A stretch of 64,000 bases of DNA from Escherichia coli (GTDB taxonomy: Bacteria > Pseudomonadota > Gammaproteobacteria > Enterobacterales > Enterobacteriaceae), in NCBI RefSeq assembly GCF_046105845.1, contig NZ_CP151004.1, one strand, 5' to 3'. The first letter of the stretch is position 1. Each line of letters opens with the position of its first letter. Positions 20,053 to 50,300 of the stretch are shown piece after piece. The position numbers were made by a program, and so were the translations under genes. The notes beneath the pieces are model-generated. The model had not been told where the DNA came from and made no database searches. It worked only from the letters and a program-made list of their open reading frames with translations.

Positions 20053-20100
20053 AGCATCCCCTGGCAATAAGAATCGGGGCTTTCGCCCCGAAGAAATGGA

Positions 20101-32734: not shown

Positions 32735-34768
32735 TCACGCGTCCGGGAACATCACGCTATGGCCCGGCGCTTCACGATGGAGATGGATAAAGTTAAGGTG
32801 TCGCTCGTACTGGTCGAGAATATCGGTGATCACCTGCTCTTTGCTGTAGTCCATCAGGTCGTTGCCCTGGCTGCCTTCTAACAGGAAAGTTTCCAGCCGG
32901 TAGTAAGTCGATTTACCGCTACGTGCGCGGTAGGTAAAGCCCGGCACCGAATATTGCTGCGGCCAAATCTGATAGACAAAGTTTTGCTCTTCGCCCATAT
33001 GCACCAACAAATCCAGATGCCCCAACTGTTGCCCCTCTTCCGGCGGCAGGCTTTTTAGCTCCACGTACGCGCCGCGCAACCGCAGCTCCTGCGCCACTTC
33101 TTCCATTGCCGGGTAACAGACCGTCTCCATCATCTGTTTAGTGTAACGCGTGCCCGGATAATTCATCAGGCGCGAGAGACGTTTTTTCCAGCTCAGGCGA
33201 TCCTGAAGCCCCAGCGGTCTCGGTGCGGTATCGCGGTTGGCACTTTCACGGCGGTAATCTTCTACCTTCAGAGATTTATACAACCCCGCCATCACGAAGA
33301 AAATCACAAAGCTGAACGGCAGCCCCATGATTACCGTGGTGTTTTGCAGCGCGGATATCCCGTTGGTCATCAGCATGCCGAGCGTCAGCAGGCCAATCGC
33401 CACCGACCAGAAAACGCGCAGCCAGCCGGGGGCGTCGCTGTTGATATCTTTAAGCTGCGAGGTGAAATTCCCCAGCACCAGCGCCCCGGAGTCCGCCGAG
33501 GTCACATAAAACAGCAGGCCAGTAATGGTGGCGACGGAGGCGCTAAAGGTAAACGCCGGATACTGCGCCAGCAGGCTGTAGAAGCCGCGCTCCGGATGGA
33601 CCATCGCTTCCTCGGCAAATGCCGCGCCGCCGTGGATGATTTCATACAGCGCGCTATTGCCGAATACCGAGAGCCATAACAGCGTGAAGGTAAACGGAAT
33701 AATCAACGTGCCCAGCACGAACTGGCGAATGGTACGCCCACGCGAGATACGCGCCAGGAACAGGCCGACAAACGGCGACCATGCCACCCACCATGCCCAG
33801 AAGAAGAGCGTCCAGTTATTCATCCACTCAACCGGACGGTCGAAGGCAAAACTGTTGAGCGTCATTCCCATAAAGCGATTCACATAGTCGCCAACGTTCA
33901 GCACCAGCGCATTAAGCAGGAACGAGGTGTCGCCCATAAACAGCACGAACAGGATCAGCCCCAGCGCCAGCGCAACGTTGAGTTCCGATAACACACGAAT
34001 GCCCTTATCGACACCGGAGGTGACAGAGATCGTTGCGATGATCACCGACAAGGCGATCAGTGCCGCTTTCGCCGCCATCGAATCGGGAATATCAAACAGT
34101 ACGCTCAAGCCATAGTTAAGCTGCACCACACCGATACCGAGCGTAGTGGCAATACCAAAGATGGTGCCGATCACCGCAGCAATATCCACTGAGTGACCTA
34201 TCGGCCCGTTAATCCGTTTACCGAAGATCGGGTACAGCGCCGAGCGGATAGTGAGCGGCAAATTATAACGATAGCTAAAGTATCCGAGCGCCATGCCCAT
34301 CAGCGCATACATCGACCAGCCGGTTAAGCCGTAGTGAAACAGCGTCCAGACCATCGCCTGACGCGCGGCCTCAATCGTCTGTCCCGCGCCTTCCGGCGGC
34401 TGCATATACTGCGTTACCGGTTCGGCTACGGAAAAGAACATCAGGTCGATACCGATCCCGGCAGCAAACAGCATCGCCGCCCAACTCAGCAGACTGAATT
34501 CCGGTTTGGATTGTTCTGGCCCGAGCTTCACCGAACCAAAACGCGAACAAGCGATACAGACCACAAAGACAATATAGAGCGTTGCCGCCAGCAGATAGTA
34601 CCAACCGAAGGTTTTAGAAACCCAGTCCAGCGTGCGGCCAATCCACAGGGCCGAGAAGTCGCGAAACAGGATCGTTGTCAGGGAAAACAACAAAATCAGT
34701 CCGGCGGAAGTGTAAAACACCACCGGATTGATTTTGTCCTTTTCCCTGCTGTGTGAAAGGTCTGTCAT
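32735..34768 (-). CDS. betT: Choline transporter (BCCT family)
   Basis: 677 aa polytopic ORF with ATG start; divergent from betIBA. Confidence 0.95.
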   Translation of the reverse strand: MTDLSHSREKDKINPVVFYTSAGLILLFSLTTILFRDFSALWIGRTLDWVSKTFGWYYLLAATLYIVFVVCIACSRFGSVKLGPEQSKPEFSLLSWAAMLFAAGIGIDLMFFSVAEPVTQYMQPPEGAGQTIEAARQAMVWTLFHYGLTGWSMYALMGMALGYFSYRYNLPLTIRSALYPIFGKRINGPIGHSVDIAAVIGTIFGIATTLGIGVVQLNYGLSVLFDIPDSMAAKAALIALSVIIATISVTSGVDKGIRVLSELNVALALGLILFVLFMGDTSFLLNALVLNVGDYVNRFMGMTLNSFAFDRPVEWMNNWTLFFWAWWVAWSPFVGLFLARISRGRTIRQFVLGTLIIPFTFTLLWLSVFGNSALYEIIHGGAAFAEEAMVHPERGFYSLLAQYPAFTFSASVATITGLLFYVTSADSGALVLGNFTSQLKDINSDAPGWLRVFWSVAIGLLTLGMLMTNGISALQNTTVIMGLPFSFVIFFVMAGLYKSLKVEDYRRESANRDTAPRPLGLQDRLSWKKRLSRLMNYPGTRYTKQMMETVCYPAMEEVAQELRLRGAYVELKSLPPEEGQQLGHLDLLVHMGEEQNFVYQIWPQQYSVPGFTYRARSGKSTYYRLETFLLEGSQGNDLMDYSKEQVITDILDQYERHLNFIHLHREAPGHSVMFPDA

Positions 34769-34896
34769 CCAGTATCCCCACTGTTATTGTTACCATTTAA
34801 AATCAAATTCGTAACAATTAAGACACATTTTATATTGAACGTCCAATCAATAACCGCTTTAATAGATAAACAACGCTGATGAATGGAGTGGCGAAA
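34769..34896. promoter_or_regulatory. Divergent betT / betIBA promoter-operator region
   Basis: 128 bp AT-rich intergenic region between divergently transcribed betT and betI; known site of BetI-mediated choline regulation (operator not mapped here). Confidence 0.5.
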
Positions 34897-35484
34897 ATGC
34901 CCAAATTGGGGATGCAGTCGATCCGGCGCAGACAACTGATCGACGCCACGCTGGAAGCAATCAATGAGGTGGGCATGCACGATGCAACGATCGCGCAGAT
35001 CGCCCGCCGTGCAGGCGTTTCTACGGGGATCATCAGCCACTATTTCAGGGACAAAAATGGTCTGCTGGAAGCAACCATGCGCGATATCACCAGTCAGCTG
35101 CGTGACGCGGTTTTGAATCGATTACATGCACTTCCGCAGGGCAGTGCAGAGCAGCGATTACAGGCGATTGTTGACGGGAATTTCGATGAAACGCAGGTCA
35201 GTAATGCTGCGATGAAAGCCTGGCTGGCGTTCTGGGCCAGCAGTATGCATCAGCCGATGCTTTACCGTTTGCAGCAGGTGAGCAGCCGCCGCTTATTGTC
35301 GAATCTGGTGAGCGAATTTCGCCGCGAGTTACCGCGCCAACAGGCACAGGAAGCGGGCTACGGCCTTGCCGCGCTGATTGACGGATTATGGCTGCGCGCG
35401 GCACTGAGCGGCAAACCGCTGGATAAACCTCTCGCACACTCGCTGACCCGTCACTTTATTACTCAGCATTTACCCACCGATTAA
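34897..35484 (+). CDS. betI: TetR-family repressor BetI
   Basis: ATG at 34897 is preceded by GGAG; gives 195 aa [19 protein letters not shown]... with TetR HTH. Confidence 0.92.
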
Positions 35485-35497
35485 CCGAGGAGACGTG

Positions 35498-36970
35498 ATG
35501 TCCCGAATGGCAGAACAGCAGCTTTATATACATGGTGGTTATACCTCCGCCACCAGCGGTCGCACCTTCGAGACCATTAACCCGGCCAACGGTAACGTGC
35601 TGGCGACCGTGCAGGCCGCCGGACGTGAGGATGTCGATCGCGCCGTGAAGAGTGCCCAACAGGGGCAAAAAATCTGGGCAGCGATGACCGCTATGGAACG
35701 CTCGCGTATTCTGCGTCGGGCCGTTGATATTCTGCGTGAACGCAATGACGAACTCGCAAAACTGGAAACCCTCGACACCGGAAAAGCGTATTCGGAAACA
35801 TCAACCGTCGATATCGTTACCGGCGCGGACGTGCTGGAGTACTACGCCGGGCTGATCCCGTCGCTGGAAGGCAGCCAGATCCCATTGCGTGAGACGTCAT
35901 TTGTTTATACCCGCCGCGAACCGCTGGGCGTAGTGGCAGGGATTGGCGCATGGAACTACCCGATCCAGATTGCCTTGTGGAAATCCGCACCGGCGCTGGC
36001 GGCAGGCAACGCGATGATTTTCAAACCGAGCGAAGTCACCCCGCTTACCGCGTTAAAGCTGGCCGAAATTTACAGCGAAGCGGGCCTGCCGGACGGCGTA
36101 TTTAACGTGCTGCCGGGCGTGGGCGCGGAGACCGGGCAGTATCTGACCGAGCATCCGGGCATTGCCAAAGTGTCATTTACCGGCGGTGTCGCCAGCGGCA
36201 AAAAAGTGATGGCTAACTCGGCGGCCTCTTCCCTGAAAGAAGTGACCATGGAGCTGGGCGGTAAATCACCGCTGATCGTTTTCGACGATGCAGACCTCGA
36301 TCTCGCCGCTGATATCGCCATGATGGCGAACTTCTTCAGCTCCGGTCAGGTGTGTACCAATGGCACCCGCGTGTTTATTCCGGCGAAATGCAAAGCCGCA
36401 TTTGAACAAAAGATTCTGGCGCGCGTTGAGCGCATTCGCGCGGGCGACGTTTTCGATCCGCAAACTAACTTCGGCCCGCTGGTCAGCTTCCCGCATCGCG
36501 ATAACGTGCTGCGCTATATCGCCAAAGGCAAAGAGGAAGGCGCGCGCGTACTGTGCGGCGGCGATGTACTGAAAGGCGATGGCTTCGATAACGGCGCATG
36601 GGTTGCACCGACCGTGTTCACCGATTGCCGCGACGAAATGACCATCGTGCGTGAAGAGATCTTCGGTCCGGTGATGTCGCTTCTCACTTATGAATCTGAG
36701 GACGAAGTGATTCGCCGCGCCAATGATACCGACTACGGCCTGGCGGCGGGCATCGTGACGGCGGACCTGAACCGCGCGCATCGCGTCATTCATCAGCTGG
36801 AAGCGGGTATTTGCTGGATCAACACCTGGGGCGAATCCCCTGCAGAGATGCCCGTTGGCGGCTACAAACACTCCGGTATTGGTCGCGAGAACGGCGTGAT
36901 GACGCTCCAGAGTTACACCCAGGTGAAGTCCATCCAGGTTGAGATGGCTAAATTCCAGTCCATATTCTGA
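35498..36970 (+). CDS. betB: Betaine aldehyde dehydrogenase
   Basis: ATG at 35498 (track starts at the adjacent GTG 35495) gives 490 aa; aldehyde dehydrogenase motifs (catalytic Cys in GQVCTNG; ELGGKSP). Confidence 0.95.
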
Positions 36971-36983
36971 CCAGGAGGTTTAT

Positions 36984-38654
36984 TTGCAATTTGACTACAT
37001 CATTATTGGTGCCGGCTCAGCCGGCAACGTTCTCGCTACCCGTCTGACTGAAGATCCGAACACAACCGTGCTGCTGCTTGAAGCAGGCGGCCCGGACTAT
37101 CGCTTTGACTTTCGCACCCAGATGCCCGCCGCGCTGGCGTTCCCGTTACAGGGTAAACGCTATAACTGGGCCTATGAGACGGAACCGGAACCGTTTATGA
37201 ACAACCGTCGCATGGAGTGCGGACGCGGTAAAGGTCTGGGCGGATCGTCACTGATCAACGGCATGTGCTACATCCGTGGCAATGCGCTGGATCTCGATAA
37301 CTGGGCGCAAGAACCCGGTCTGGAGAACTGGAGCTACCTCGACTGCCTGCCCTACTACCGCAAGGCCGAGACGCGCGATGTGGGCGAGAACGACTACCAC
37401 GGCGGCGACGGCCCGGTGAGCGTCACCACCTCCAAACCCGGCGTCAATCCGCTGTTTGAAGCGATGATTGAAGCGGGCGTGCAGGCGGGCTACCCGCGCA
37501 CGGACGATCTCAACGGTTATCAGCAGGAAGGTTTTGGCCCGATGGATCGCACCGTCACGCCGCAGGGCCGTCGCGCCAGCACCGCGCGTGGCTATCTCGA
37601 TCAGGCCAAATCGCGCCCTAACCTGACCATTCGTACTCACGCCATGACCGATCACATCATTTTTGACGGCAAACGCGCGGTGGGCGTCGAGTGGCTGGAA
37701 GGCGACAGCACCATTCCGACCCGCGCGGCGGCGAATAAAGAAGTGCTGTTATGTGCAGGCGCGATTGCTTCACCGCAGATCCTGCAACGCTCCGGCGTCG
37801 GCAACGCTGGACTGCTGGCGGAGTTTGATATTCCGCTGGTGCATGAATTACCTGGCGTCGGCGAAAATCTTCAGGATCACCTGGAGATGTATCTGCAATA
37901 TGAGTGCAAAGAACCGGTTTCCCTCTACCCTGCCCTGCAGTGGTGGAATCAGCCGAAAATCGGTGCGGAGTGGCTGTTTGGCGGCACCGGCGTTGGTGCC
38001 AGCAACCACTTTGAAGCTGGCGGATTTATTCGCAGCCGTGAGGAATTTACGTGGCCGAATATTCAGTACCATTTCCTGCCAGTGGCGATTAACTATAACG
38101 GCTCGAACGCAGTGAAAGAGCACGGCTTCCAGTGCCACGTCGGATCGATGCGCTCGCCAAGCCGTGGGCATGTGCGGATTAAATCCCGCGACCCGCACCA
38201 GCATCCGGGAATTCTGTTTAACTACATGTCGCACGAGCAGGACTGGCAGGAGTTCCGCGACGCAATTCGCATCACCCGCGAGATCATGCATCAACCCGCG
38301 CTGGATCAATACCGTGGCCGCGAAATCAGCCCCGGCGCGGAATGTCAGACGGATGAGCAGCTCGATGAGTTCGTGCGTAACCACGCCGAAACCGCGTTTC
38401 ATCCGTGCGGTACCTGCAAAATGGGTTATGACGAGATGGCAGTGGTTGACGCCGAAGGCCGCGTACACGGGCTGGAAGGCCTGCGCGTGGTGGATGCGTC
38501 AATTATGCCGCAAATTATCACCGGCAATTTGAACGCTACGACTATTATGATTGGCGAGAAAATGGCGGATATGATTCGCGGGAAGGATGCGTTGCCGAGG
38601 AGCACGGCGGGATATTATGTGGCAAATGGGATGCCGGTGAGAGCGAAAAAATGA
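36984..38654 (+). CDS. betA: Choline dehydrogenase (GMC oxidoreductase)
   Basis: Recognised BetA N-terminus (M)[14 protein letters not shown] aligns with a TTG at 36984, preceded by AGGAGG at 36973-36978 with 5 nt spacing; gives 556 aa. The ORF track extends to another TTG at 36939. Confidence 0.88.
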
Positions 38655-39735
38655 GTCGTGATGTGAACTGACTCAGGAACCTATCAGATTGAGAGTTACC
38701 GTTCTACTATGAGGACCGAATCCTTATATAAAACACTGAGGTAACTCTCATGCTTCATCGTGACAATCTCGCCAGCAAATTCTAAGCTGACTTGCTCAAT
38801 CTGGCTAATGAAGGTGCTATGGATACACAGATAAACCACAGGTGAAATGCCACTCAGCTTAAGAATCACGCAGCTAGTGTTCCTGGCTATGGTTACTTGT
38901 TCACTCTCGCTCACGGTTAGCATATACGAAAACGGTTCTTGTAACGAGGACAAAAATAAGTCAGACCAAAACCACATGGAGCTTTAAACACGGCTCGTAT
39001 AATTTATTAGCAGCGATTTATTTTTACTCTTCTTTAATTAATCATCATGCTTAAATATTTTTTAGCACACGATTATCGCTTCACTAACATTTTAGTTTAC
39101 ATTGATTCCCAATTGACAATAAAAAATTGTTAATAAGTTTTTGCGAAAAATAAAAAGTGTTGAAATACTCTCCAGTAAACGAATGCAAAATAAACAAACT
39201 AAGGTTTACAAAAAACAAAAACTATTCAAAAGAATATTTTTAATTTATTAGCAGAGTCCATTAACAATGGTTTACTCACGAACAGAAAAGTAAAGAACAC
39301 CTTGCAATAATATGTATTTATAAATTCATATCATTGATATTAAACTAATCTTACTTTCTACCCTCCCAACTTCATACACCAAAAAAACAAAGTAAAATCA
39401 ATTATATACACAACAAGGCAATCTCAAAGGAAATAATATTAAATATCTCAAAACTAATAAAAATTACTAAGACATTAGACGTAACACACATCCCACACGC
39501 CCTGTAGCTCATAGCTTTTATATTTATTTTCTCACATCACTGTAGATAAAAACACGCATTAAAAATGACTTGTAGAAAAGCTGCACAATAAATAGTTCAT
39601 ATTTAGTCTGTTGCGTAGAACTACTATTCAAAAAATCTTATTAATGAGATAATGAGATTACATCGATAACGTTCTGATTGCAGGCATACTTATCTGGGTG
39701 TGCCTCTCTTTTTTTACAACTGTACACGGTGGCGT

Positions 39736-40299
39736 ATGACGAGAAAATATCTCACACAGGATGAAGTCTACAGGCTGATGGATGCAGCCCAGAGCATGTC
39801 CTTTCCTGAAAGAAATCGCTGTCTGATTATGATGGCTTTCATTCACGGTTTTAGGGCCAGTGAACTTCTTGATTTACGTTTATCCGATATTGATGCATCT
39901 GGAAAACAACTTAATATTCGGCGTATTAAAAATGGTTTCTCGACAACACATCCTCTTCTTCCTGATGAATATAATTTGATCAAGTTGTGGCTTAAGCAGA
40001 GGAAGTTAATTGAAAACGGAGTTGAAGGAGACTGGCTTTTTCTCTCCCGGAAACGCCGCCCTATCAGCAGACAACATTTTTTTTCTATCATTCGTGAGGC
40101 TGGAAAACGTGCAGGATTAGCTGTAAAAGCACATCCTCATATGTTACGTCATGCCTGTGGTTTTGCTCTGGCTGACAATGGTGTCGATACCCGACTACTT
40201 CAGGATTATCTGGGTCATCGAAATATTCAGCATACTGTCAGATACACAGCCAGTAATGCTGCTCGTTTTAAAGGGGTGTGGAAAAAAAAGCCTCGTTAA
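39736..40299 (+). CDS. Tyrosine site-specific recombinase, FimB/FimE-like
   Basis: ATG at 39736 gives about 187 aa MTRKYLTQDEVYRLMDAAQ...; C-terminal catalytic region HMLRHACGFALADNGVDTRLLQDYLGHRNIQHTVRYT contains the R-H-R-Y tyrosine-recombinase signature, and size and sequence resemble the fim-switch recombinases; gene is visibly AT-rich. Possibly the ipuA homolog (unverified). Confidence 0.85.
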   Translation: MTRKYLTQDEVYRLMDAAQSMSFPERNRCLIMMAFIHGFRASELLDLRLSDIDASGKQLNIRRIKNGFSTTHPLLPDEYNLIKLWLKQRKLIENGVEGDWLFLSRKRRPISRQHFFSIIREAGKRAGLAVKAHPHMLRHACGFALADNGVDTRLLQDYLGHRNIQHTVRYTASNAARFKGVWKKKPR

Positions 40300-40311
40300 A
40301 ACAGTACCTTC

Positions 40312-40327
40312 TGATTCAAAATGTCAG
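40312..40327. repeat. Left inverted repeat of candidate invertible element
   Basis: TGATTCAAAATGTCAG; exact reverse complement occurs at 40574-40589. Confidence 0.85.
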
Positions 40328-40573
40328 ATTCCTACGTTTTCCTCAATTCTTCCATAAAAAAACAGCCCATTCAATTAAATAAAACACATAACATGTTGAT
40401 ATTTCTAGCTAAAGTAAAATAACCCCATGATTTGAAATGATTAATCACAAAGGTCATACCAGTGATTAACTTTTGCTCATATTGTTAAATAGCACAAAAT
40501 TAAAAACAATAAAAATCAAACAAATTAGATTTATATTCCAAGAAAATTAAATATTCAGGCTATTAAACAAAAC

Positions 40574-40589
40574 CTGACATTTTGAATCA
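40574..40589. repeat. Right inverted repeat of candidate invertible element (inside a 31 bp perfect palindrome at 40571-40601)
   Basis: CTGACATTTTGAATCA; the surrounding AACCTGACATTTTG-A-ATCAAAATGTCAGGTT is a perfect palindrome, so this end carries the repeat in both orientations, like paired recombinase half-sites. Confidence 0.85.
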
Positions 40590-40628
40590 AAATGTCAGGT
40601 TTTGTAGCAATGGCGTGGACGAGTCTGA

Positions 40629-41423
40629 ATGAAGAAGCCTCTGGTTATTATCAGTGCCTGTCAGTTCACCAGGCTGGCACTGGAGTCTCTCATCCCAACG
40701 GACAGGTATCTCGTGCGGGTGTACAGCAACGTCACTACAGAGGTTGAATTCATTTTAAAGACCTCCTGTGGCTACCTGTTAGCTGATATCCCTTCGCTTC
40801 CTTCGGGGGAGTTGGTTCTTCTGGCTTGTCTTGTCCGCTTGCGGAGTGATGCCGGGCAATGGCAGGTCTGCCTGACCGGTGACTCCGACTGGTTCGATAA
40901 TGCTCCTGCTGCAAGTCTGTATAACGGCTTCCCACGCATCGGCACCATGCTGACAGCGAGTCGTTATCAGAATCAAATTATCCGCTGGTTACTACGTCCT
41001 TTGCCCGGCGATATGAGTGATTTCTGGCTCCTGACTGCACGGGAGTTGAGCGTGCTTAAGATTCTGATGCAGGGCATGAGTTTCAGTGAGATTGCCCGTT
41101 ATGAACAACGCAGTTCAAAGACCCTGCATGCGATTGCCACACGGGCATTAATGAAACTTGGACTGGGAACTCTGAGCGATTTCAGGCTGCTCTATACGGG
41201 ATGCGGTGACAGCAGAGTGAAACGGAATATACGGCTACATGCAAGATATGTCGGACAACATTCCGCTCATCGACTCACTCAGTATATGCAGAACATGGTA
41301 TCCGGAATTCTTTATCCAGAGAAAGTTGTCGTTGGTGAATCAATAAATTCTGACGCCATATCCGGAAAAGTACTTTCCGGACAAAGAAAAAATATGTCTA
41401 AAAAAAGACCAGGATTGTTATGA
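40629..41423 (+). CDS. LuxR-family transcriptional regulator (C-terminal HTH)
   Basis: 264 aa ORF with ATG start; LuxR-type HTH LTARELSVLKILMQGMSFSEIARYEQRSSKTLHAIATRALMKLGL, closely similar to the HTH of PdeL in this window; no recognisable receiver domain. Confidence 0.8.
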   Translation: MKKPLVIISACQFTRLALESLIPTDRYLVRVYSNVTTEVEFILKTSCGYLLADIPSLPSGELVLLACLVRLRSDAGQWQVCLTGDSDWFDNAPAASLYNGFPRIGTMLTASRYQNQIIRWLLRPLPGDMSDFWLLTARELSVLKILMQGMSFSEIARYEQRSSKTLHAIATRALMKLGLGTLSDFRLLYTGCGDSRVKRNIRLHARYVGQHSAHRLTQYMQNMVSGILYPEKVVVGESINSDAISGKVLSGQRKNMSKKRPGLL

Positions 41424-41522
41424 CACAGCAGCGTTGTTACTACCCCCCACTGCGGCGCATACGGACTCGCTACAGTGTAGGAGCCAAAATATTTCTACTG
41501 CTCTGGGCTGCAGGATTGGGAG

Positions 41523-41549
41523 GCACGCTGTACAGCCTGTACAGCGTGC
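41523..41549. other. Perfect 27 bp palindrome between the two regulator genes
   Basis: GCACGCTGTACAG-C-CTGTACAGCGTGC (13 bp arms); not followed by a T-tract, so it may be an operator or RNA structure rather than a simple terminator. Confidence 0.4.
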
Positions 41550-41576
41550 TGGCGTACTGACATCAGTGAGGGAAGG

Positions 41577-42338
41577 ATGCGTTTCGTTCTTTTCTGTCCC
41601 TCAGGAATTGTACCAGCGCAGTTCGCAGCTCTATCAACCGGTTCTGTCGGCAATGTTACCTGCATCGGAACAGAAGAGGAGTTACGCAATAAATTGCGGC
41701 ACAGGCCACAGAGTGTCGTGATATCGGCAGGGCGACCTGCCGAATGCGCTGAAATGTGGTTCCGATTTTATCGGGATCACTCATTCGTGGTGGTGTTGTG
41801 CGTCGCGCCCTTTTTTCTGCCACCGGATGTGAGTATTTCTGGCGTTCTCAAAAACCTGAGGTTACTGAAACCAGGAATGTCAGTAGAGCGTGTCATCAGT
41901 ATTGCAAATGCCTCTGGTGGGTTTTCAGGACTGAAACATGCAGAAAGCTTGCCAGTTATGGACAGTTACTCTGTCTTTATGAAAGAGGTGAATAACCGCA
42001 CAAAGACAATCGTCATGTCAGAACGCTTCCCGGAAAAGCAAAAGAAGGTGTTGTCGTTACTTCTTGCCGGACACAGCTGGGAATACAGTGCGCAATTTCT
42101 CAAAACGGGGATAAGACAGATATGGCTTACCGAGCAGTCGCTAAAAAAGCGTTGGGGAATACCGGACAGCATGTCATTGCGGGAAGCCCTGCTGCTTGGC
42201 AGCAATAAATTTCACGGTGATGGAAACGCATTGGAAACAACGAATGCCATGACATTGCGTGAAAACGGAAATACCAACAGGTATTCCGTGGTGGTAAATG
42301 CAGGGACGCTGGCTTTATCTCTGCATAAATATAAATAA
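41577..42338 (+). CDS. Putative transcriptional regulator with LuxR-like C-terminal HTH
   Basis: 253 aa ORF with ATG start preceded by GAGGGAAGG; HTH-like segment EKQKKVLSLLLAGHSWEYSAQFLKTGIRQIWLTEQSLKKRWGI; AT-rich. Confidence 0.65.
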   Translation: MRFVLFCPSGIVPAQFAALSTGSVGNVTCIGTEEELRNKLRHRPQSVVISAGRPAECAEMWFRFYRDHSFVVVLCVAPFFLPPDVSISGVLKNLRLLKPGMSVERVISIANASGGFSGLKHAESLPVMDSYSVFMKEVNNRTKTIVMSERFPEKQKKVLSLLLAGHSWEYSAQFLKTGIRQIWLTEQSLKKRWGIPDSMSLREALLLGSNKFHGDGNALETTNAMTLRENGNTNRYSVVVNAGTLALSLHKYK

Positions 42339-42379
42339 GTGGGAAATTGAAATTAGTTACCAGAATGGAGAATTTCTTC

Positions 42380-44980
42380 ATGAAAAACAGTAAGGCATTT
42401 TACCGCAGCGCATTAGCAACAGCTATTGTTATGGCTCTTTCTGCCCCAGCATTCGCTGCTGATAACGCGGTATCAACTACACCGGTTACATTGGATAAAG
42501 ATAAGACAACTCTGGATCAAGATGTTGTTATTAACGGTGATAACAAGATTACAGCCGTAACAATTGAGACGTCAGATTCAGATAAAGACCTTAATGTTAC
42601 TTTTGGCGGTCACGATATTACCGCCGCATCAACGGTAAACCAAGATTTCGTTGAAGGTGTAAAAGTTAGCGGTGACAAAAATGTTGTGATTAATGCTACA
42701 GGCTCCACCATCACAGCTCAAGGTGAAGGCACCTATGTCCGGACTGCAATGGTCATTTCTTCAACAGGCGATGTTGTTGTTAATGGCGGTAACTTTGTTG
42801 CAAAAAATGAAAAAGGTAGTGCGACAGGGATATCTCTGGAAGGGACCAAAGGAAATAATGTAACGCTCAATGGCACAACCATAAATGCTCAAGGTAAAAA
42901 TGATTCGAGCAACAGCTCTACGGCAATTTTTGCTCAAAAGGGTAGCGTATTGGATGGGCATGGCTTTAGCGGTGATGCAACCGACAACATTACCCTTGCT
43001 GGCTCAAATATTATTAATGGCCGGATTGAAACAATACTTATTGCTCAGGAGAATACGGGAACTCATACAGTCAACCTGAATATTAAGGATGGCTCAGTAA
43101 TTGGGGCGGCTAATAATAAACAAACAATTTATGCCTCTGCTTCGGCACAAGGAGCAGGTTCAGCAACGCAAAATTTAAATTTATCTGTCGCCGATTCAAC
43201 CATCTACTCTGATATCCGTGCCCTTTCTGCAAGCGAGAATTCAGCCGGTACCACAACAAATGTAAACATGAACGTTGCCCGCTCTTACTGGGAAGGTAAT
43301 GCTTATGCTTATGCTTATGCTTATGCTTATGCTGATGACGATAAAGCGAGTAGTAATCTGAATATAAATCTTTCCGATGGCTCAGTCTGGAAAGGAAATG
43401 TTGCGGGTAATACGACTACTGGCAGCACCGGTACTACAGAAAACCAGTCAGCAACCGTAAGTCTGTCTGATTCCACCTGGAAAGGTAACGTGGGTGACGG
43501 TCTGGATGGTGGTGCGCGAGTCACGCTGAAAAACTCCAGCTGGACTGGTGATGTCAGCAACGCCAAAACGGCTGTTGTTCTGACGGATGGTTCTGTGTGG
43601 AATGGTGCCATTAACAGCAATCCTGTTGCAGGAAGTCATGCAGTGGCTGCTGCCGGCAGCACTGATGCAGGTACTTTGACTCCATCTACGTTAGCCGGTC
43701 AGACAGTTGCACTTGCCGGCTCCACCTGGAATGTTACCGGTGATTCTTCTGTTCTTGGCGTCACTGCTGTAAACAGCACCATCAGTGTGAAAGATGCCTC
43801 CCTGACAACTCAGGTTCTTTCTGCAAAAGACAGCAATCTTGTTGTTGATGCAGGTACAACCAATGCTCTGAATGTCACAGGGAAAGCTACCGGTAATGTG
43901 ACAGTTTATAACGCTGGTACCGTAGACTTGAAAGATGCAAAAACAGCATTCATTACTGTTGGTGAAGGCAGTGACCTGAAAGCCACAGGCACAACGGAAG
44001 GTGGTCTGTATCAATATGACCTGACACAGGGAGCTGATGGTAACTTTTATTTCGTAAAAAACACGCATAAAGCATCCAACGCCAGCTCCGTGATTCAGGC
44101 AATGGCAGCTGCTCCGGCTAACGTCGCTAATCTGCAGGCTGACACGCTCTCCGCCCGTCAGGATGCTGTCCGTCTGAGCGAAAATGACGAGGGTGGCGTA
44201 TGGATTCAGTACTTTGGCGGTAAACAGAAACATACCACCGCAGGAAATGCATCCTATGACCTGGATGTAAACGGTGTAATGCTGGGTGGTGATACCCGCT
44301 TCATGACTGAAGATGGTAGCTGGCTGGCCGGTGTGGCGATGTCTTCTGCGAAAGGTGACATGACTACCATGCAGAGCAAAGGTGACACAGAAGGTTACAG
44401 CTTCCACGCTTACCTGAGCCGCCAGTATAACAACGGTATCTTCATTGATACTGCTGCACAGTTTGGTCACTACAGCAACACGGCAGATGTTCGCCTGATG
44501 AATGGTGGCGGTACCATCAAAGCTGACTTTAACACCAATGGTTTCGGTGCGATGGTTAAAGGCGGTTACACATGGAAAGACGGTAATGGCCTGTTTATTC
44601 AGCCATATGCCAAACTGTCTGCGCTGACGCTGGAAGGTGTGGATTATCAACTCAACGGCGTGGACGTTCATTCTGACAGCTATAACTCTGTGCTGGGTGA
44701 GGCCGGTACGCGCGTGGGTTATGACTTCGCTGTGGGCAACGCGACCGTTAAACCTTATCTGAATCTGGCCGCACTGAACGAATTCTCTGATGGCAACAAA
44801 GTCCGTCTGGGTGATGAGTCTGTCAATACCAGCATTGACGGTGCAGCATTCCGCGTGGGTGCAGGTGTACAGGCTGATATCACCAAAAACATGGGAGCAT
44901 ATGCTAGCCTTGACTACACCAAAGGTGACGACATTGAGAACCCGCTACAGGGTGTAGTTGGTATCAATGTGACCTGGTAA
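42380..44980 (+). CDS. Autotransporter (type Va) adhesin-like protein
   Basis: ATG at 42380 preceded by GGAG; N-terminal signal peptide MKNSKAFYRSALATAIVMALSAPAFA; passenger with repeated S-x-W-x-G-N/D motifs; C-terminal beta-barrel translocator ending ...GVVGINVTW. Track start 42347 is a TTG. Possibly the upaE homolog (unverified). Confidence 0.85.
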   Translation: MKNSKAFYRSALATAIVMALSAPAFAADNAVSTTPVTLDKDKTTLDQDVVINGDNKITAVTIETSDSDKDLNVTFGGHDITAASTVNQDFVEGVKVSGDKNVVINATGSTITAQGEGTYVRTAMVISSTGDVVVNGGNFVAKNEKGSATGISLEGTKGNNVTLNGTTINAQGKNDSSNSSTAIFAQKGSVLDGHGFSGDATDNITLAGSNIINGRIETILIAQENTGTHTVNLNIKDGSVIGAANNKQTIYASASAQGAGSATQNLNLSVADSTIYSDIRALSASENSAGTTTNVNMNVARSYWEGNAYAYAYAYAYADDDKASSNLNINLSDGSVWKGNVAGNTTTGSTGTTENQSATVSLSDSTWKGNVGDGLDGGARVTLKNSSWTGDVSNAKTAVVLTDGSVWNGAINSNPVAGSHAVAAAGSTDAGTLTPSTLAGQTVALAGSTWNVTGDSSVLGVTAVNSTISVKDASLTTQVLSAKDSNLVVDAGTTNALNVTGKATGNVTVYNAGTVDLKDAKTAFITVGEGSDLKATGTTEGGLYQYDLTQGADGNFYFVKNTHKASNASSVIQAMAAAPANVANLQADTLSARQDAVRLSENDEGGVWIQYFGGKQKHTTAGNASYDLDVNGVMLGGDTRFMTEDGSWLAGVAMSSAKGDMTTMQSKGDTEGYSFHAYLSRQYNNGIFIDTAAQFGHYSNTADVRLMNGGGTIKADFNTNGFGAMVKGGYTWKDGNGLFIQPYAKLSALTLEGVDYQLNGVDVHSDSYNSVLGEAGTRVGYDFAVGNATVKPYLNLAALNEFSDGNKVRLGDESVNTSIDGAAFRVGAGVQADITKNMGAYASLDYTKGDDIENPLQGVVGINVTW
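43301..43330 (+). repeat. Tandem hexanucleotide repeat (GCTTAT)x5 inside the autotransporter gene, encoding (Ala-Tyr)5
   Basis: Five perfect GCTTAT units followed by a degenerate GCTGAT; translated as NAYAYAYAYAYADDD in the passenger domain. Confidence 0.9.
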
Positions 44981-45018
44981 GAATAAAGCAGTCGGTTCCC
45001 CTGTCGACTGTTATACCC

Positions 45019-45083
45019 CCTGCAGGCAGCATACTGCTGCCTGCAGGCCATAAATATCCAGTATTCATGATGCTGGTTTTTTG
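45019..45083 (+). terminator. Palindrome plus hairpin/T-tract downstream of the autotransporter gene
   Basis: Perfect palindrome CCTGCAGGCAGCA-TAC-TGCTGCCTGCAGG (45019-45047) followed by CCAGTATTCATGATGCTGG-TTTTTTG (45058-45083). Confidence 0.45.
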
Positions 45084-45161
45084 CTGATATTTAACCCGAA
45101 CACTCCTGATACAGACTATTAATTCATTTATCTGCGACAGATTTCATTTTCTGGATATATT

Positions 45162-45830
45162 ATGAGTGAACAAATCAAACAGGATATCGATCTGATTGAG
45201 ATTTTATTTTATCTGAAGAAAAAGATTCGTGTTATCCTTTTTATTATAGCTATCTGTATGGCAATGGTGCTTTTATTTCTGTATATCAATAAAGATAATA
45301 TAAAAGTGAGTTACAGCCTAAAAATAAATCAGACAACACCAGGCATACTTGTTAACTGTGATAGCAATAATAACTTTGCCTGTCAGACCACAATGACTGA
45401 AGATGTTATACAGCGAATTACTACATTTTTTCACACCAGCCCAGATGTCAAGAACAGAGAAATAAAGCTGGAATGGTCAGGAGATAAGAGAGATTTACCA
45501 ACTGCTGAAGCGGAAATATCTCGCGTGCAGGCGTCTATCATCAAATGGTATGCGTCAGAATACCATAATGGCAGGCAAGTTCTCGATGAGATACAAACGC
45601 CTTCAGCAATTAACAGTGAGCTTTATACAAAAATGATATACCTGACCAGGAACTGGTCACTGTATCCAAACGGTGATGGCTGTGTCACTATAAGCTCACC
45701 AGAAATAAAAAATAAATACCCTGCTGCCATTTGCCTGATTCTGGGATTTTTTCTAAGCATTGTGATTTCTGTAATGTTTTGCCTTGTCAAAAAAATGGTA
45801 GATGAATACCAACAAAACTCTGGGCAGTAA
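45162..45830 (+). CDS. ykgH: Uncharacterised membrane-anchored protein YkgH
   Basis: 222 aa ORF with ATG start; hydrophobic segments near both termini; position relative to betA and ykgEFG as in K-12. Confidence 0.8.
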   Translation: MSEQIKQDIDLIEILFYLKKKIRVILFIIAICMAMVLLFLYINKDNIKVSYSLKINQTTPGILVNCDSNNNFACQTTMTEDVIQRITTFFHTSPDVKNREIKLEWSGDKRDLPTAEAEISRVQASIIKWYASEYHNGRQVLDEIQTPSAINSELYTKMIYLTRNWSLYPNGDGCVTISSPEIKNKYPAAICLILGFFLSIVISVMFCLVKKMVDEYQQNSGQ

Positions 45831-45931
45831 TAAACAGCATTCTGATAGAGAGTGCCTGTATAAAGCTGAAGTGACAATGACCGGGAAGGGAACCCGTTTT
45901 CAGGAATGGATGCCTGTCTTTTTCACTGTAA

Positions 45932-45960
45932 ATATCCTGGCATTACTAATGCCAGGATAT
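45932..45960. terminator. Perfect 29 bp palindrome between ykgH and convergent ykgG (candidate bidirectional terminator)
   Basis: ATATCCTGGCATT-ACT-AATGCCAGGATAT. Confidence 0.4.
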
Positions 45961-46072
45961 TTAAAGAAGAGGAGCATAACCATGACGGAACGGGGTTAAG
46001 TCAGGTTGTCCTAAACGCTATTTTCAACCTCGTATGCCTTCTTCAGGTTTATGTCCAGACTTCATATCTCTC

Positions 46073-46768
46073 TCAACAATCCTCAATAATCAGATACACC
46101 GCTTTCACCGGGCCATGAACTCCGACGACTTTGATAAGCTCAATATCCGCCGTTGAACTAGGGCCGCTAATGATGTTAATGCAGGACGGCATGCGTTCAC
46201 CGGCCTGCGCTTTCTGATGCAATTTTTCTGCGAGTTGCGCTACACGCGGCAGGATTGTGCTTTTACGCAGGATAAAAAGAGAAGATTCCGGGAGCAGGCT
46301 CAATGAACGCCCGCGCCCGGCGGCGGAAAAAAGAACCACGCCTCCCGATTCGGTTAAACCATATTCAGCATACACTACGCCAACTTTAGCCTGCTCTGCT
46401 TGTGATATGTTCTCAATACCTTTCGCCGGATCCCAAACAACGGCATTGCATTCCTGCTGCAAACGTTCGCTAATCCCCAATTCCTCCAGCCTCGTGTCAC
46501 CACTAATCACGACCGACTGATCTCCCAGCTCTTTACACAGTCGTATTGCAGCTTCTGCCGCCTTCGCCTCGCTGGTCAGTTCACAGCGCGTCAGCATAAC
46601 ATCGCTGGCAAACTGGATAAACGCGTCACAGCGCTGCTGTTGGGTAAGTTGGGTAAGCCGCTCGTTAGCATAGTTGTTAAGCGGCGCATCTTCTGCTTGC
46701 GGTTCAAGTCGCAGCGGGCGACCCAGTGCCTGAGCAACGTTATTCAAAAATTCGCTCCGATTATCCAT
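46073..46768 (-). CDS. ykgG: LutC-like lactate-utilisation protein YkgG
   Basis: ATG at 46768 gives 231 aa MDNRSEFLNNVAQALGRPL..., overlapping the ykgF stop by 8 bp; track ORF is a 5' extension. Confidence 0.85.
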   Translation of the reverse strand: MDNRSEFLNNVAQALGRPLRLEPQAEDAPLNNYANERLTQLTQQQRCDAFIQFASDVMLTRCELTSEAKAAEAAIRLCKELGDQSVVISGDTRLEELGISERLQQECNAVVWDPAKGIENISQAEQAKVGVVYAEYGLTESGGVVLFSAAGRGRSLSLLPESSLFILRKSTILPRVAQLAEKLHQKAQAGERMPSCINIISGPSSTADIELIKVVGVHGPVKAVYLIIEDC

Positions 46769-48188
46769 TCTTTTTCTCCTGCGCCTGATGTTTCTTAAAC
46801 CAACTACGGAAACTCTCTCCGTCAGCTTCAGGAAGATCGCGTGCTTCCATCCAGTCGCTAATCGCGCCAAATTTGAGTGGTGTTTTGCCGCCATTGATAA
46901 ACCAGCTTGCCGCATGAGCACCGGCCATCATCCCGACTTTCCACAATCCTGGATGACTATTGGCATAAGCGAACATTTTTATCGCCCGTTGCTCTGCTTT
47001 TGCGGTGATCCCTTTTTCAGCCATCACCCGACGATGACGCAAAATCAGTTTTGACAGCGGAATACGCACCGGACACACGCTGTCACAAGCAGTGCATAAA
47101 GAGCAGGCGTAGGGTAAATCTTTAAAATCTTTATAGCCGCCAAGTAGCGGAGAAATCACCGCACCAATTGGCCCTGGATAAATAGAGCCATATCCATGAC
47201 CGCCAATATGGCGATATGCCGGACAAGTATTCATACAAGCCCCGCAGCGAATACAGCGCAGCACATCCCGAAATTCAGAGGCCAGCACCTCAGAACGCCC
47301 GTTATCGACAATAACCAGATGAAACTCTTCAGGACCATCAACGTGCCCCGCTTCGCGCGGTCCTGTCAGCCAGGTGTTGTATCCCGTCAAACGTGCACCA
47401 ACGGCACTGCGCGCCAGCATGGTGATCAATACATCTACCTCGGCAAACGTGGGGGCAATACGCTCCATTCCCATCACTGCAATATGCGTTTTAGGCAGCG
47501 TGGTACACATTCGCGCATTACCTTCATTGGTCACCAGGCATACCGAACCGGTCTCTGCCACCGCGAAATTACAGCCGGTAATACCTATTTCAGCACTGAG
47601 GAAATCTTCGCGGATTTTTTGCCGGATGAATAAGGTCATTGCTTCAGGCGTTTCCGACCCCTCATAGCCCAGACGTTCGTGTAGCACCCGACGGATCTGA
47701 TGGCGATCTTTATGAATTGCCGGGACCACAACATGAGAGGGCGGATCTTGATCCAGCTGGAGAATGTATTCACCCAGATCGGTTTCAATCACCTGAATGC
47801 CAGCATCCTGCAACACATGATTGACACCAATCTCTTCGGTCACCATCGATTTAGATTTCACCACCTTCCGGGCATTTTTGCGTTGGGCAACCTGTAAAAT
47901 GTAGCGGGTAGCGTCTTCTTTGGTTTTTGCAAAATAGACGTGACCGCCGTTTTGCGTCACTTTTTCTGAGAGCTGGTACAGATAAGCGTCGAGATTACTC
48001 AGAACATGATCACGTATCTGGGCGGCCCGATCGCGCCACTCCTCCCAGTGCCCCAATTCATCGACCATTTTTTGCCGATTTGCCCCAATACGCTGCTGCG
48101 CGTTTGCCACCGCTTTGCGCATGATCGGATCTTCAATTTGCTGACGGATGCGTGTCTTAAAATCTGTATTACTGGTTTTGATCGACAT
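46761..48188 (-). CDS. ykgF: LutB-like iron-sulfur oxidoreductase YkgF
   Basis: 475 aa ORF with ATG start; two 4Fe-4S ferredoxin-type CxxCxxCxxxCP motifs. Confidence 0.9.
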   Translation of the reverse strand: MSIKTSNTDFKTRIRQQIEDPIMRKAVANAQQRIGANRQKMVDELGHWEEWRDRAAQIRDHVLSNLDAYLYQLSEKVTQNGGHVYFAKTKEDATRYILQVAQRKNARKVVKSKSMVTEEIGVNHVLQDAGIQVIETDLGEYILQLDQDPPSHVVVPAIHKDRHQIRRVLHERLGYEGSETPEAMTLFIRQKIREDFLSAEIGITGCNFAVAETGSVCLVTNEGNARMCTTLPKTHIAVMGMERIAPTFAEVDVLITMLARSAVGARLTGYNTWLTGPREAGHVDGPEEFHLVIVDNGRSEVLASEFRDVLRCIRCGACMNTCPAYRHIGGHGYGSIYPGPIGAVISPLLGGYKDFKDLPYACSLCTACDSVCPVRIPLSKLILRHRRVMAEKGITAKAEQRAIKMFAYANSHPGLWKVGMMAGAHAASWFINGGKTPLKFGAISDWMEARDLPEADGESFRSWFKKHQAQEKKNG

Positions 48189-48198
48189 CTTTATATCC

Positions 48199-48918
48199 TC
48201 AGCGGCTCATCAACACTTCAGCAATATGCATCACTTTGACTTTCTGCCCTTCCCGTTGTAATCGCCCACTGATGTTCAGCAGGCAACTCACGTCAGCACC
48301 AATTAAAAACTCAGGGCGGACTTCCATCAGGTGCGCAACCTTTTCTTTCACCATCTCGCCGGATATTTCGGCCATTTTGACCGAGAACGTGCCGCCAAAT
48401 CCGCAGCAGGTATCCTGTTCAGCAAAGGTCAACAGCTCCAGTCCACGCACATTTTTCAGCAGCGTAAGTGGCTCGTCCTTCACCCCCAGCTTACGGGCCA
48501 GGCTACAAGATGGGTGATACACCGCTCTCCCTTGCAAACTGGCACCTACATCGACTACCCCTAATGTATTAACAATAAAAGAGGTGAGATCCTGCATACG
48601 CGCGGCAACCTTTTCGGCACGTGATGCCCATTCAGGTTCATCCGCCAGATAAGTTGGGTAACTTTTTACGGCATAGGTACAGGAGCCAGCCGGTGAAATA
48701 ATGGGATCGTCGTTATCCTCCAGTGCGGCGATCAGATTTTTCATCCCTGGAATCGCTTCTTTGATATAACCACTATTGATCGCAGGCTGACCGCAGCATC
48801 CCTGTTTCTCCGGGAAATTTACGCGACAGCCGAGTTTTTCCAGTAGCAGCACGGAGTCTCGTGCCATTCTTGATTTCAGGGCGTCACCAATACAGGTGAC
48901 AAAGAAATTGACATTCAC
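48199..48918 (-). CDS. ykgE: LutA-like cysteine-rich (CCG domain) oxidoreductase subunit YkgE
   Basis: 239 aa ORF with GTG start; cysteine-rich CCG-domain motifs. Confidence 0.9.
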   Translation of the reverse strand: MNVNFFVTCIGDALKSRMARDSVLLLEKLGCRVNFPEKQGCCGQPAINSGYIKEAIPGMKNLIAALEDNDDPIISPAGSCTYAVKSYPTYLADEPEWASRAEKVAARMQDLTSFIVNTLGVVDVGASLQGRAVYHPSCSLARKLGVKDEPLTLLKNVRGLELLTFAEQDTCCGFGGTFSVKMAEISGEMVKEKVAHLMEVRPEFLIGADVSCLLNISGRLQREGQKVKVMHIAEVLMSR

Positions 48919-49445
48919 AACTAATACTCCATTACTTCATGCCCATTTATGCCCGATGGTTCCCCCTTCCGGGGGAGCAATCATCAATAAATATGGCGTT
49001 CTTTTTTAATTGGCTAGCAACATACCACCCCTCATTTGTATGACAAATGATAATCTTTCATCCAAACTTCAAATGCAATAACTAATTTTATTTCTTTCGG
49101 CATCGCTCACATTTTATGGGGAAATCGACGATCATTTTTGGCATAAGAAATCCATTTAAAAATGGCTACATCCCTTATACCTATTCAGAGCTACTTATTC
49201 AGGGGTTATTGAGATATACACTGATGGTGTACAAACAAAATCACCGACAATAATCACGTATCAAGTAATAGTCGGGATTTTATTTAATTGAAGCAATTTA
49301 GTTTGCATTTTTATTTAAAAACTGAGCTAGAGTCCATCAGAAAAAAATATATAAAGCCCAAACCACCGTTGGAAATAGAAATAGTTGAAAGGCTCACAAC
49401 TCCCGGAATGCGGATTATCTTTGCCCTGATTTCTGGCGGTTTTAT

Positions 49446-50300
49446 TCAGGGTGCAAGCTGTCTGACCCTTTCCCGATATTCTCCCGGAGTACAACCAAAC
49501 TCGCGGACAAACGCCTTGTGAAAAGATGATTCACTGGCATAGCCTACTGACTCAGCGATCACCACAACAGGGAGCATTTCCCGGGAAAACATCTGGGCCG
49601 CTATTTGTAGACGCAACTTTGTTAATACAGCCAGCGGCGTGGTTCCGGAAACATCACGGAAAAGCTGGGCAAAACTTGCCCGGGACATGTGGGCGATGCT
49701 GGCCAGCGATTCGACGGTCCAGGCGTGTCCTGGCATTTCCAGCATTTGCTGTATTACCGCACCAAGACGTGGATGCAGAAGCAAACTGAGAATGTTTTTC
49801 TCAGTATTAACCTGTGCAATCCACTCACGCACCGCGAGGGTAAAGAATGTAGCGCAGATCTGGCTACACAGAGCATCCACTCCCGGCATTGCCGATCTGG
49901 ATTCCTGTTGTAAAAACGGGATCGCCTCCCTCAGCCAGTTATATTCCACGCTATGGTTCACTGGTGCTACAAACAGCGTTTCCGGCAAAGACGTTAAAAA
50001 ATAACGCGCCGAATGTTGCAGCCGAAGAGTGCCACAGACAATACAGGTCGATTCATTATCGACATGACTCAGGCGATGAGCTGAATTTTGTGGTAGCAGG
50101 ACCACATTTCCCGGGCGTAATGTAAAAATCTCTCCCGTCGGCATTTCCAGCTTCGCCGCTCCTTGCGTTAACGCATGCCAACGAATAACCGACAATTCCC
50201 CGGCACCATGTGGAAGTTGCCAGTCACTTCCTAACACGCAATTCTTATCGATCGTTCCTTGTGGAGCGTTAAGCATCAACAAACGGCTAAGAGCATCCAT
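49446..50300 (-). CDS. rclR: AraC-family redox-sensing activator RclR
   Basis: ATG at 50300 gives 284 aa MDALSRLLMLNAPQGT...; C-terminal AraC HTH; divergent from rclABC. Confidence 0.88.
   Translation of the reverse strand: MDALSRLLMLNAPQGTIDKNCVLGSDWQLPHGAGELSVIRWHALTQGAAKLEMPTGEIFTLRPGNVVLLPQNSAHRLSHVDNESTCIVCGTLRLQHSARYFLTSLPETLFVAPVNHSVEYNWLREAIPFLQQESRSAMPGVDALCSQICATFFTLAVREWIAQVNTEKNILSLLLHPRLGAVIQQMLEMPGHAWTVESLASIAHMSRASFAQLFRDVSGTTPLAVLTKLRLQIAAQMFSREMLPVVVIAESVGYASESSFHKAFVREFGCTPGEYRERVRQLAP

Follow-up and report, generated by a model that had tools for sequence, protein, structure and literature searches.

The DNA between betA and ykgH in a 64,000-nt stretch of Escherichia coli sequence (contig NZ_CP151004.1 of assembly GCF_046105845.1; this whole stretch is the window, numbered from its first nucleotide) is almost certainly a copy of PAI-X, a published accessory island of E. 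coli that forms a self-contained phase-variation module. The island also goes by the names 'UpaB cluster' and GI-4 of avian pathogenic E. coli (APEC) O1/DE205B. According to the open reading frames (ORFs) of the window and the RefSeq annotation of a genome 99.9% identical over this region, its elements lie on one strand in the order ipbA, hyxS, hyxR, hyxA and hyxB (upaB), and all four genes and both repeats of the hyxS switch are intact. The best match to positions 38400–45400 among complete E. coli genomes is a pig O169:H41 strain at 99.9% identity (megablast), whose RefSeq annotation lists ipbA ('also known as HbiF and FimX'), hyxR, hyxA and an autotransporter, and whose four island proteins match those of the window at every residue. 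The same gene arrangement is found between betA and ykgH in UTI89, the strain in which PAI-X was defined with the gene order fimX-hyxR-hyxA-hyxB (PMC3789825). Moreover, a 2016 paper describes the 'UpaB cluster' as an insertion between betA and ykgH with a G+C content (GC) of 43.08% and a probable horizontal origin (PMC4844996).

The position, low GC, gene content and regulation of this island were in print between 2006 and 2016. The initial annotation of the window, made from the sequence alone, had described an accessory, horizontally acquired insertion where strain-specific regulation would be expected, which matches these earlier accounts (PMC3789825 and PMC4844996). Its observation is correct but not new and, because the same statement had already been published, it is an independent rediscovery; further, it overlooked the central feature of the island, which is the hyxS promoter switch between ipbA and hyxR. 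Overall, the window supplies one further intact copy of the island, and only two elements of the present analysis reach beyond the accessible literature, namely a hypothesis for the excision of hyxS and a long UpaB allele.

The recombinase that had been noticed in the sequence is encoded by ipbA (= fimX = hbiF; 39736–40299, + strand), an intact gene whose 187-amino acid (aa) product is a Fim-type tyrosine DNA invertase. In particular, IpbA scores above the cut-offs of the NCBIfam models NF007370 ('tyrosine-type DNA invertase'; 251.6 bits, cut-off 221) and NF007371 (233.2 bits, cut-off 222), and far under the cut-off of every integrase or Xer model, with 53.8 bits against the 265 required by the integron integrase model. 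It is identical at 187 of 187 residues to IpbA of strain KP63 (WP_001295805.1, which is the UTI89 protein), and is 100% identical to the experimentally active FimX of UTI89 and CFT073. In the translation, GFRASE, HMLRHACG and VRYTA are candidate motifs, picked by eye, for the catalytic R-H-R-Y residues. Previous studies found that hyxS is inverted by FimX alone (PMC6083910, PMC6458436), and that FimX also acts on the unlinked fimS element, switching it ON (PMC6083910). IpbA is most probably the promoter invertase for hyxS, not the integrase of the island.

The presence of a tyrosine recombinase at one end of the island might instead suggest a mobile element that integrated itself at an att site beside betA, using IpbA as its integrase, and the gene has indeed been termed a 'putative phage integrase' in an argument for horizontal transfer (PMC4844996). 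Such self-integration is very improbable, as the model scores of this 187-aa protein single out FimB/FimE-type invertases and exclude integrases. Moreover, a repeat scan and an alignment with the empty site agree with the initial annotation that the island ends carry no flanking direct repeats or att sites; the two junctions overlap by only 2 bp, and a scan finds no tRNA or tmRNA gene within 34000–50000. The repeats that do exist bound a 246-bp promoter segment rather than the island: across the whole 64 kb, the repeat sequence occurs once as the left repeat, once as the right repeat and once as a direct copy, and never at the island ends.

The hyxS element has a total length of 278 bp and consists of a 246-bp invertible core (40328–40573), present in the UTI89 reference orientation, between a left inverted repeat (IRL, TGATTCAAAATGTCAG, 40312–40327, + strand) and a right inverted repeat (IRR, CTGACATTTTGAATCA, 40574–40589, + strand). 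The repeats are perfect over 16 bp, the length reported for hyxS (PMC6083910), and an inversion breakpoint at IRR is seen in another genome (locus L005). The core is 98% identical to that of UTI89 and has the same orientation. IRR lies inside a larger, perfect 19+1+19 palindrome (40567–40605) and, because it does, a directly oriented near-copy of IRL also exists (TGAATCAAAATGTCAG, 40583–40598), 271 bp from IRL itself. Position 40569 is an A in the window, as it is in O157, and a C in UTI89, ST131, Nissle and the pig O169:H41 strain (AACAAAACC versus AACCAAACC); therefore, the IRR palindrome of the window forms a perfect 19-bp stem instead of 16 bp with a mismatch. As RNA, the palindrome folds with a free energy of −33.7 kcal/mol (z = −8.5) in the window orientation, compared to −17.9 kcal/mol and a shorter stem after inversion, and no fold in the alleles where hyxS is deleted. 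In the resting state, the hairpin could help to block transcriptional read-through from ipbA.

The orientation of hyxS was counted across 5,426 complete E. coli genomes, the sample also used for the other counts of complete genomes, with a 641-bp probe (40130–40770) in its native form and with the core reverse-complemented. An ipbA-hyxR junction probe is present in 1,891 of these genomes (35%). Among these carriers, 1,780 (94%) match the native probe end to end and so share the resting orientation of the window, 16 (0.8%) match the inverted-core probe, 89 (4.7%) have hyxS deleted, and 6 are otherwise truncated. For example, strain AVS0744 reads TGATTCAAAATGTCAG, followed by GTTTGG...GGAAT, followed by CTGACATTTTGAATCA, where the core is exactly inverted and the repeats are unchanged. 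The ipbA gene is annotated as intact in 10 of the 16 inverted genomes; in the remaining six, mostly from dogs, the annotation shows a partial 'DNA recombinase'. One of these canine strains, Eco_24-2013 (locus L006, 6001–6585), retains only the last 114 nt of ipbA, beside ISEc8. These six, as a single lineage, are naturally locked in the minority orientation by the loss of ipbA.

The orientation found in the window is likely to be OFF. Variation of hyxS relative to the reference was detected in UTI89 and CFT073 only upon fimX overexpression (PMC6458436), and CFT073 without all of its recombinases was described as having hyxS 'locked OFF' (PMC6083910). Further, a relaxed scan of both orientations yields a candidate sigma-70 promoter (TTGAAT, 17 nt, TGgAAGAAT; 40346–40374, − strand) that runs from 40374 to 40346, facing away from hyxR as sequenced and toward it once inverted; this sole extended −10 promoter-like site faces hyxR only after inversion. 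The opposite assignment, where hyxS is ON and hyxR is transcribed as sequenced, would draw on the weak promoter-like sites (8/12 matches) present on the + strand in the window orientation, and on a study in which a commensal strain expressed hyxRAB strongly in some conditions (PMC12922286). The ON assignment has only a small chance of being correct, considering that the orientation is the UTI89 reference one and common to nearly all carriers, that inversion away from it was detected only with excess FimX, that recombinase-null cells were locked OFF, that the extended −10 site points away from hyxR, and that the 19-bp perfect hairpin stands just 5′ of hyxR in the window orientation only.

Beyond inversion, hyxS is also lost precisely. 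An exact 271-bp deletion of hyxS is found in the 89 genomes counted above, using a junction probe whose E-value limit could be passed by a full-length match only. In the deletion alleles examined (loci L004 and L008–L013), hyxR begins 58 bp past ipbA and the intervening hairpin is gone. At least four flank backgrounds carry deletions, and each of them also has relatives with an intact hyxS and identical island proteins: the deletion clone D i14 equals Nissle 1917 in IpbA, HyxR and HyxA, the deletion strain 20Y000092 has its HyxR in common with ST131, and a deletion group of APEC O78:H4 has its IpbA in common with Rb-50. The neighbour-joining tree of the flanks is distorted by two partial sequences, and was used only to group deletion and intact alleles, backed by the protein accessions.

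The deletion junctions are of two types, TGATTC and TGAATC, although the intact loci examined all carry TGATTC at IRL, with TGAATC confined to the direct copy. The second type requires either an exchange within 3 bp of homology or the resolution of a heteroduplex, and a staggered site-specific cleavage with heteroduplex would explain both types better than slippage. These patterns suggest that the loss of hyxS is recurrent and possibly recombinase-mediated. A tentative explanation, slightly less probable than its negation, is that IpbA/FimX itself excises hyxS through the direct IRL copy, irreversibly and leading to a fixed state; if so, the recombinase of a phase switch can also dispose of that switch. 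No published report of hyxS excision was found, with literature coverage incomplete for the two most relevant papers.

A divergent relative of the module provides a comparison for the repeats. A 4,251-bp Logan contig from SRR19479291 (L020) carries a hyx-like module whose recombinase is 84% identical at the protein level to that of the window, with a HyxA-like protein at 52% and a UpaB-like passenger at 37% identity. Its intergenic region contains two arms of 24 nt, 96% complementary and separated by 241 nt, which keep the repeat core TTCAAAATGTCA; its right repeat is palindromic as well. The interior between the arms, at only about 63% identity to its counterpart in the window, is less conserved than the flanking coding DNA (75–78%). 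The conservation of the repeats and their spacing, and not of the interior, therefore supports a function for the repeats. Not one of the 5,426 complete E. coli genomes has this variant, and an exact-pattern search for a hyxS-like repeat pair, covering one genome per species across 100,044 species, has no match. The L020 module qualifies a claim published in 2013, namely that only E. coli has the island.

Downstream of the switch, the initial annotation reported two LuxR-like regulators, which is correct by sequence for the first and, for the second, only at the level of its predicted fold. This description is consistent with PMC4844996. The hyxR gene (40629–41423, + strand) is intact and encodes a 264-aa LuxR/GerE-family regulator that matches Pfam GerE (PF00196, E = 3.9e-6, residues 135–181) and is identical to HyxR of ST131/KP63 at 255 of 264 residues. 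The hyxA gene (41577–42338, + strand) encodes a 253-aa protein with a predicted receiver-like domain and LuxR-type helix-turn-helix. HyxA has no Pfam match, either alone or together with seven homologues, no NCBIfam match, and no sequence match in the PDB by profile; there is also no BLASTP similarity between HyxA and HyxR, and they are therefore not recognisable as paralogues. A search of 1.84 billion representative proteins yields only 28 matches to HyxA; roughly seven are full-length, with 30–52% identity.

An AlphaFold2 model of HyxA built on those homologues (mean predicted local distance difference test score, pLDDT, of 77.6; predicted template modelling score, pTM, of 0.72) shows a (beta-alpha)5 domain followed by a long linker helix and then a C-terminal domain that is helical. 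The best Foldseek matches to this model are full-length NarL/FixJ-type regulators (RcsB, VraR, StyR, FixJ, DesR and LiaR) with E-values from 3e-5 to 7e-4 over about 210–225 columns, and from 3e-5 to 1e-4 for RcsB, VraR, StyR and FixJ. Their TM-scores are low (0.3–0.47), as would be expected for a difference in domain orientation. By inspection, HyxA has no acidic residues after beta-1 and no Asp after beta-3 (VVISAGRP). Based on the model, HyxA probably works like, and descends from, the LuxR/GerE-type regulator family.

The output gene hyxB/upaB (42380–44980, + strand) encodes a type Va (AIDA-I-type) autotransporter adhesin, and the initial annotation was right to list an autotransporter (Pfam Autotransporter PF03797, E = 1.5e-47; TIGR01414, 237 bits). 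From its sequence, the protein appears to have a putative signal peptide (N-terminus MKNSKAFYRSALATAIVMALSAPAFA, as read in translation), a beta-helical passenger and a C-terminal 12-strand barrel. It is a rare long allele of 866 aa. Against the sequence of the crystal structure 6BEA, it aligns with E = 6e-200 in two stretches that skip residues 345–445, and its identity to the canonical 763-aa HyxB is 68%, with gaps at 105 positions; its translocator (residues 540–866) is nearly identical to the canonical one, and residues 446–540 are diverged. The extra passenger segment of about 100 residues (aa 345–445; 43412–43714, + strand) is absent from UpaB of the CFT073/UTI89 type. It contains five copies of a TCCACCTGGAAAGGTAACG-like DNA unit (direct-repeat family D1) and its repeated S-x-W-x-G-N motif may be read as additional beta-helix rungs. 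A hexanucleotide repeat, (ATGCTT) x 6.5, lies in frame at 43299–43337 (+ strand; Tandem Repeats Finder score 71) and encodes (AY)5 in the passenger domain; the length and sequence of this (AY)n run vary among other long alleles, with one AY in the canonical allele. The region 43290–43760 is covered to 80% or more in just 5 of the 5,426 complete genomes. RefSeq names the long UpaB alleles generically, rather than as HyxB. UpaB is a studied colonisation factor that binds fibronectin and glycosaminoglycans, and its structure and binding sites were mapped on the short form (PMC6488583); the window strain has the longer one.

Altogether, the components suggest the following circuit. IpbA/FimX would invert the 278-bp hyxS element between its own gene and hyxR, such that in one orientation an internal promoter, at the predicted position, would drive hyxR, and in the opposite orientation hyxR would be silent. 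HyxR and HyxA, as atypical NarL/FixJ-like regulators, would then bind the upaB promoter with antagonistic effects, and would also reach O-antigen chain length, hmpA and nitrosative stress, capsule and acid resistance; UpaB would be the surface adhesin output of the module. Several published results bear on these steps. The inversion of hyxS controls hyxR (PMC3789825). AutA and AutR (APECO1-1682 and APECO1-1683), the two regulators of the island, bind and control the upaB promoter PupaB, where one activates it and the other cancels the activation (PMC4844996). Moreover, both O-antigen chain length and resistance to serum respond to hyxA and hyxR (PMC3789825), the hyx regulators influence nitrosative-stress tolerance via hmpA (PMC3789825, PMC8777976), and the regulators of the island influence capsule and acid-resistance genes (PMC4844996). 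In addition, phage selected for inversion of the hyxR switch, which provided transient resistance (PMC12361893). Since every part is intact, the system in the window is presumably functional and resting OFF.

Several points weigh against this account. First, HyxA has no family at the sequence level, and its role as a regulator derives from a medium-confidence model and one experimental paper. Second, the assignment of AutA to HyxR and of AutR to HyxA is no more than probable, as it was deduced from the order of locus tags and the stronger GerE similarity of HyxR. Third, a standard sigma-70 scan of hyxS finds nothing in either orientation, with the candidate promoter below its threshold; promoter-like sites across 38600–42450 number 6, compared to 8.9 expected from shuffled sequences, and are thus not enriched. 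Both the ON/OFF assignment and the promoter position have indirect grounds. Finally, the UpaB allele of the window is about 100 residues apart from the characterised one, and its ligand specificity may differ.

The boundaries of the island follow from genomes where it is absent. In the window, betA ends at 38654 and ykgH starts at 45162, with 6,507 bp between them. As the initial annotation stated, the two genes are adjacent in K-12: MG1655 has ykgH at 324696–325364 and betA at 325577–327247, spaced 212 bp apart and without the island, and the spacing is the same in a second laboratory strain. Aligning the empty site of a K-12-like genome to the window with blastn assigns 38400–38758 to the betA side and 45054–45492 to the ykgH side with a 2-bp overlap, which puts the island junctions at 38758/38759 and 45053/45054. 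The junctions are collinear and the inserted DNA is therefore 38759–45053 (+ strand; 6,295 bp, 44.0% GC). There is no target-site duplication, because the junctions have just a 2-bp 'AT' in common. The interval of 38655–45160 that was initially delimited does hold the island, but is the full intergenic interval, and takes in roughly 100 bp of core spacer on either side.

The claim that the island is more AT-rich than its flanks stands in comparison to betIBA (57.6% GC) and ykgGFE (50.8% GC), as well as to the whole window (49.8% GC), but not in comparison to ykgH, which at 36.6% GC is more AT-rich than the island. Further, when the rest of the 64 kb is divided into 452 non-overlapping 6.3-kb windows, 10 of these equal the island in AT-richness. 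The coding parts of the island have 42–49% GC, and its AT-richness is concentrated in two non-coding stretches, 38759–39735 (32.3% GC) and 40300–40628 (28.9% GC). In particular, the four 500-bp windows with the lowest GC anywhere in the 64 kb (26–29%) are all within 38901–39700. The second most AT-rich stretch of the window lies outside the island, in the 877-bp non-coding spacer between pdeL and betT (31858–32734, 33–37% GC). The initial annotation also called the adhesin content 'H-NS-silenced'. The AT-rich tracts would be compatible with H-NS silencing of an adhesin locus, but the label itself finds no support here; a published list of H-NS-repressed autotransporters includes UpaC, UpaH and UpaG, and not UpaB (PMC5012682).

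The first of these AT-rich stretches (38759–39735, with a minimum of 26% GC) is presumed to be a regulatory leader of ipbA. It contains no ORF of at least 60 aa between 38978 and 39657, no repeat of note and no match to Rfam; the whole region 38400–45400 has no Rfam match at E ≤ 1. Some RefSeq records place a 44-aa hypothetical ORF within the leader. Two longer ORFs were rejected as spurious, as both are absent from the RefSeq annotation: a 93-aa ORF on the − strand (38696–38977) that spans the left junction, and a 326-aa ORF (43691–44671) antisense to upaB. Just inside the right junction, a 13-bp GC-rich stem-loop (45019–45047, + strand) is possibly the end of the upaB transcript; its function can only be inferred, because no T-run follows it.

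Across the sampled genomes, the flanks are found in 5,213 and at least 80% of the query 38400–45400 is found in 1,813 (megablast). The DNA is therefore neither core in K-12 and all E. coli, being absent from MG1655 and carried by 1,813–1,891 of the 5,426 genomes, nor similar in GC to bet and ykgEFG. Among avian isolates, the UpaB cluster was reported in 15.6% of phylogroup A, 23.2% of B1, 74.4% of B2 and 68.0% of D (PMC4844996). In addition, fimX was found in 83% of uropathogenic E. coli (UPEC) and 36% of commensals (PMC6458436, PMC7545054).

The island was most likely acquired long ago, and later spread and was lost through homologous recombination of its conserved flanks; flank recombination is the most likely route because no mobility signature is present. 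Alternatively, the island could be ancestral at this site, with K-12-like strains having lost it by deletion. The empty junction is clean, with a 2-bp ambiguity and no scar, which suits a deletion as well as an insertion; the island occurs in all of the phylogroups surveyed in PMC4844996, and it is visibly decaying in O157:H7. However, an ancestral origin remains rather doubtful. It does not fit the 44% GC of the island between core operons of 57.6% and 50.8%, nor its holding of the most AT-rich DNA in the window; a hyxS-like repeat pair is missing from the 100,044 species representatives, although the exact-pattern test is narrow; and the identical empty junction in about 65% of genomes is more simply the ancestral state.

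The state of the island differs between strains. In the O157 strain 644-PT8 (locus L014), a frameshift in ipbA, an internal stop codon in hyxR and a truncation of hyxA indicate a decaying island. In other genomes from the first search, the autotransporter is annotated as 'adhesin', and in one of them it is split in two beside IS1203.

Two other regions of the window contain genes outside this locus that presumably differ from K-12. Between yahK and yahJ (about 16650–21750), there are four ABC-transporter genes, annotated as an 'autoinducer 2 ABC transporter substrate-binding protein', an ATPase and two permeases, together with an ASCH-domain gene; UTI89 also has these genes, which are presumably absent from K-12. 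The window may therefore hold another accessory insertion here. At about 55060–59310, there is an intact 4.25-kb fdeC gene for an inverse autotransporter adhesin, whose K-12 counterpart (eaeH) we take to be disrupted.

Compared to known copies of PAI-X, the window shares with UPEC strains UTI89, CFT073 and EC958 the insertion site between betA and ykgH, the four genes in order and an identical IpbA, and it shares with UTI89 identical 16-bp hyxS repeats and a switch core that is 98% identical and in the same orientation. In contrast to the ST131/KP63 alleles, its HyxR differs at 9 of 264 residues and its HyxA at 6 of 253 residues, and its 866-aa UpaB is longer than the canonical one of 763–765 aa. 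The passenger still matches that of CFT073 UpaB (PDB 6BEA, E = 6e-200), to which the window allele adds the 345–445 insertion and the (AY)5 expansion.

The regulators resemble the NarL/FixJ response regulators in the predicted receiver and LuxR helix-turn-helix fold of HyxA and in the GerE domain of HyxR. Unlike these response regulators, HyxA has no detectable sequence similarity to the family and no acidic phospho-acceptor pocket, and the island has no gene for a partner kinase (by annotation; PMC4844996).

The switch itself is most readily compared to fimS with FimB and FimE, where a short tyrosine invertase is likewise found beside an invertible promoter element of about 0.3 kb with short inverted repeats, and IpbA scores above the cut-offs of the same NCBIfam invertase subfamilies. 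The two switches differ in their repeats, which are 9 bp in fimS and 16 bp in hyxS with little sequence similarity (PMC6083910, PMC6458436). They also differ in their targets, as fimS drives a structural fimbrial operon and hyxS drives the regulator gene hyxR; in their recombinases, two for fimS and one cognate recombinase for hyxS; and in the long palindrome that surrounds the IRR of hyxS. Finally, the ipuS system of CFT073 (IpuA-IpuB, ipuR and upaE) follows the same logic of a recombinase, an invertible promoter, a LuxR-type regulator and an autotransporter adhesin on an accessory island (PMC6083910). Its 260-bp element, however, has 7-bp repeats, overlaps the ipuA coding sequence and is served by two recombinases, and the ipu module is located elsewhere and has no HyxA-like second regulator.

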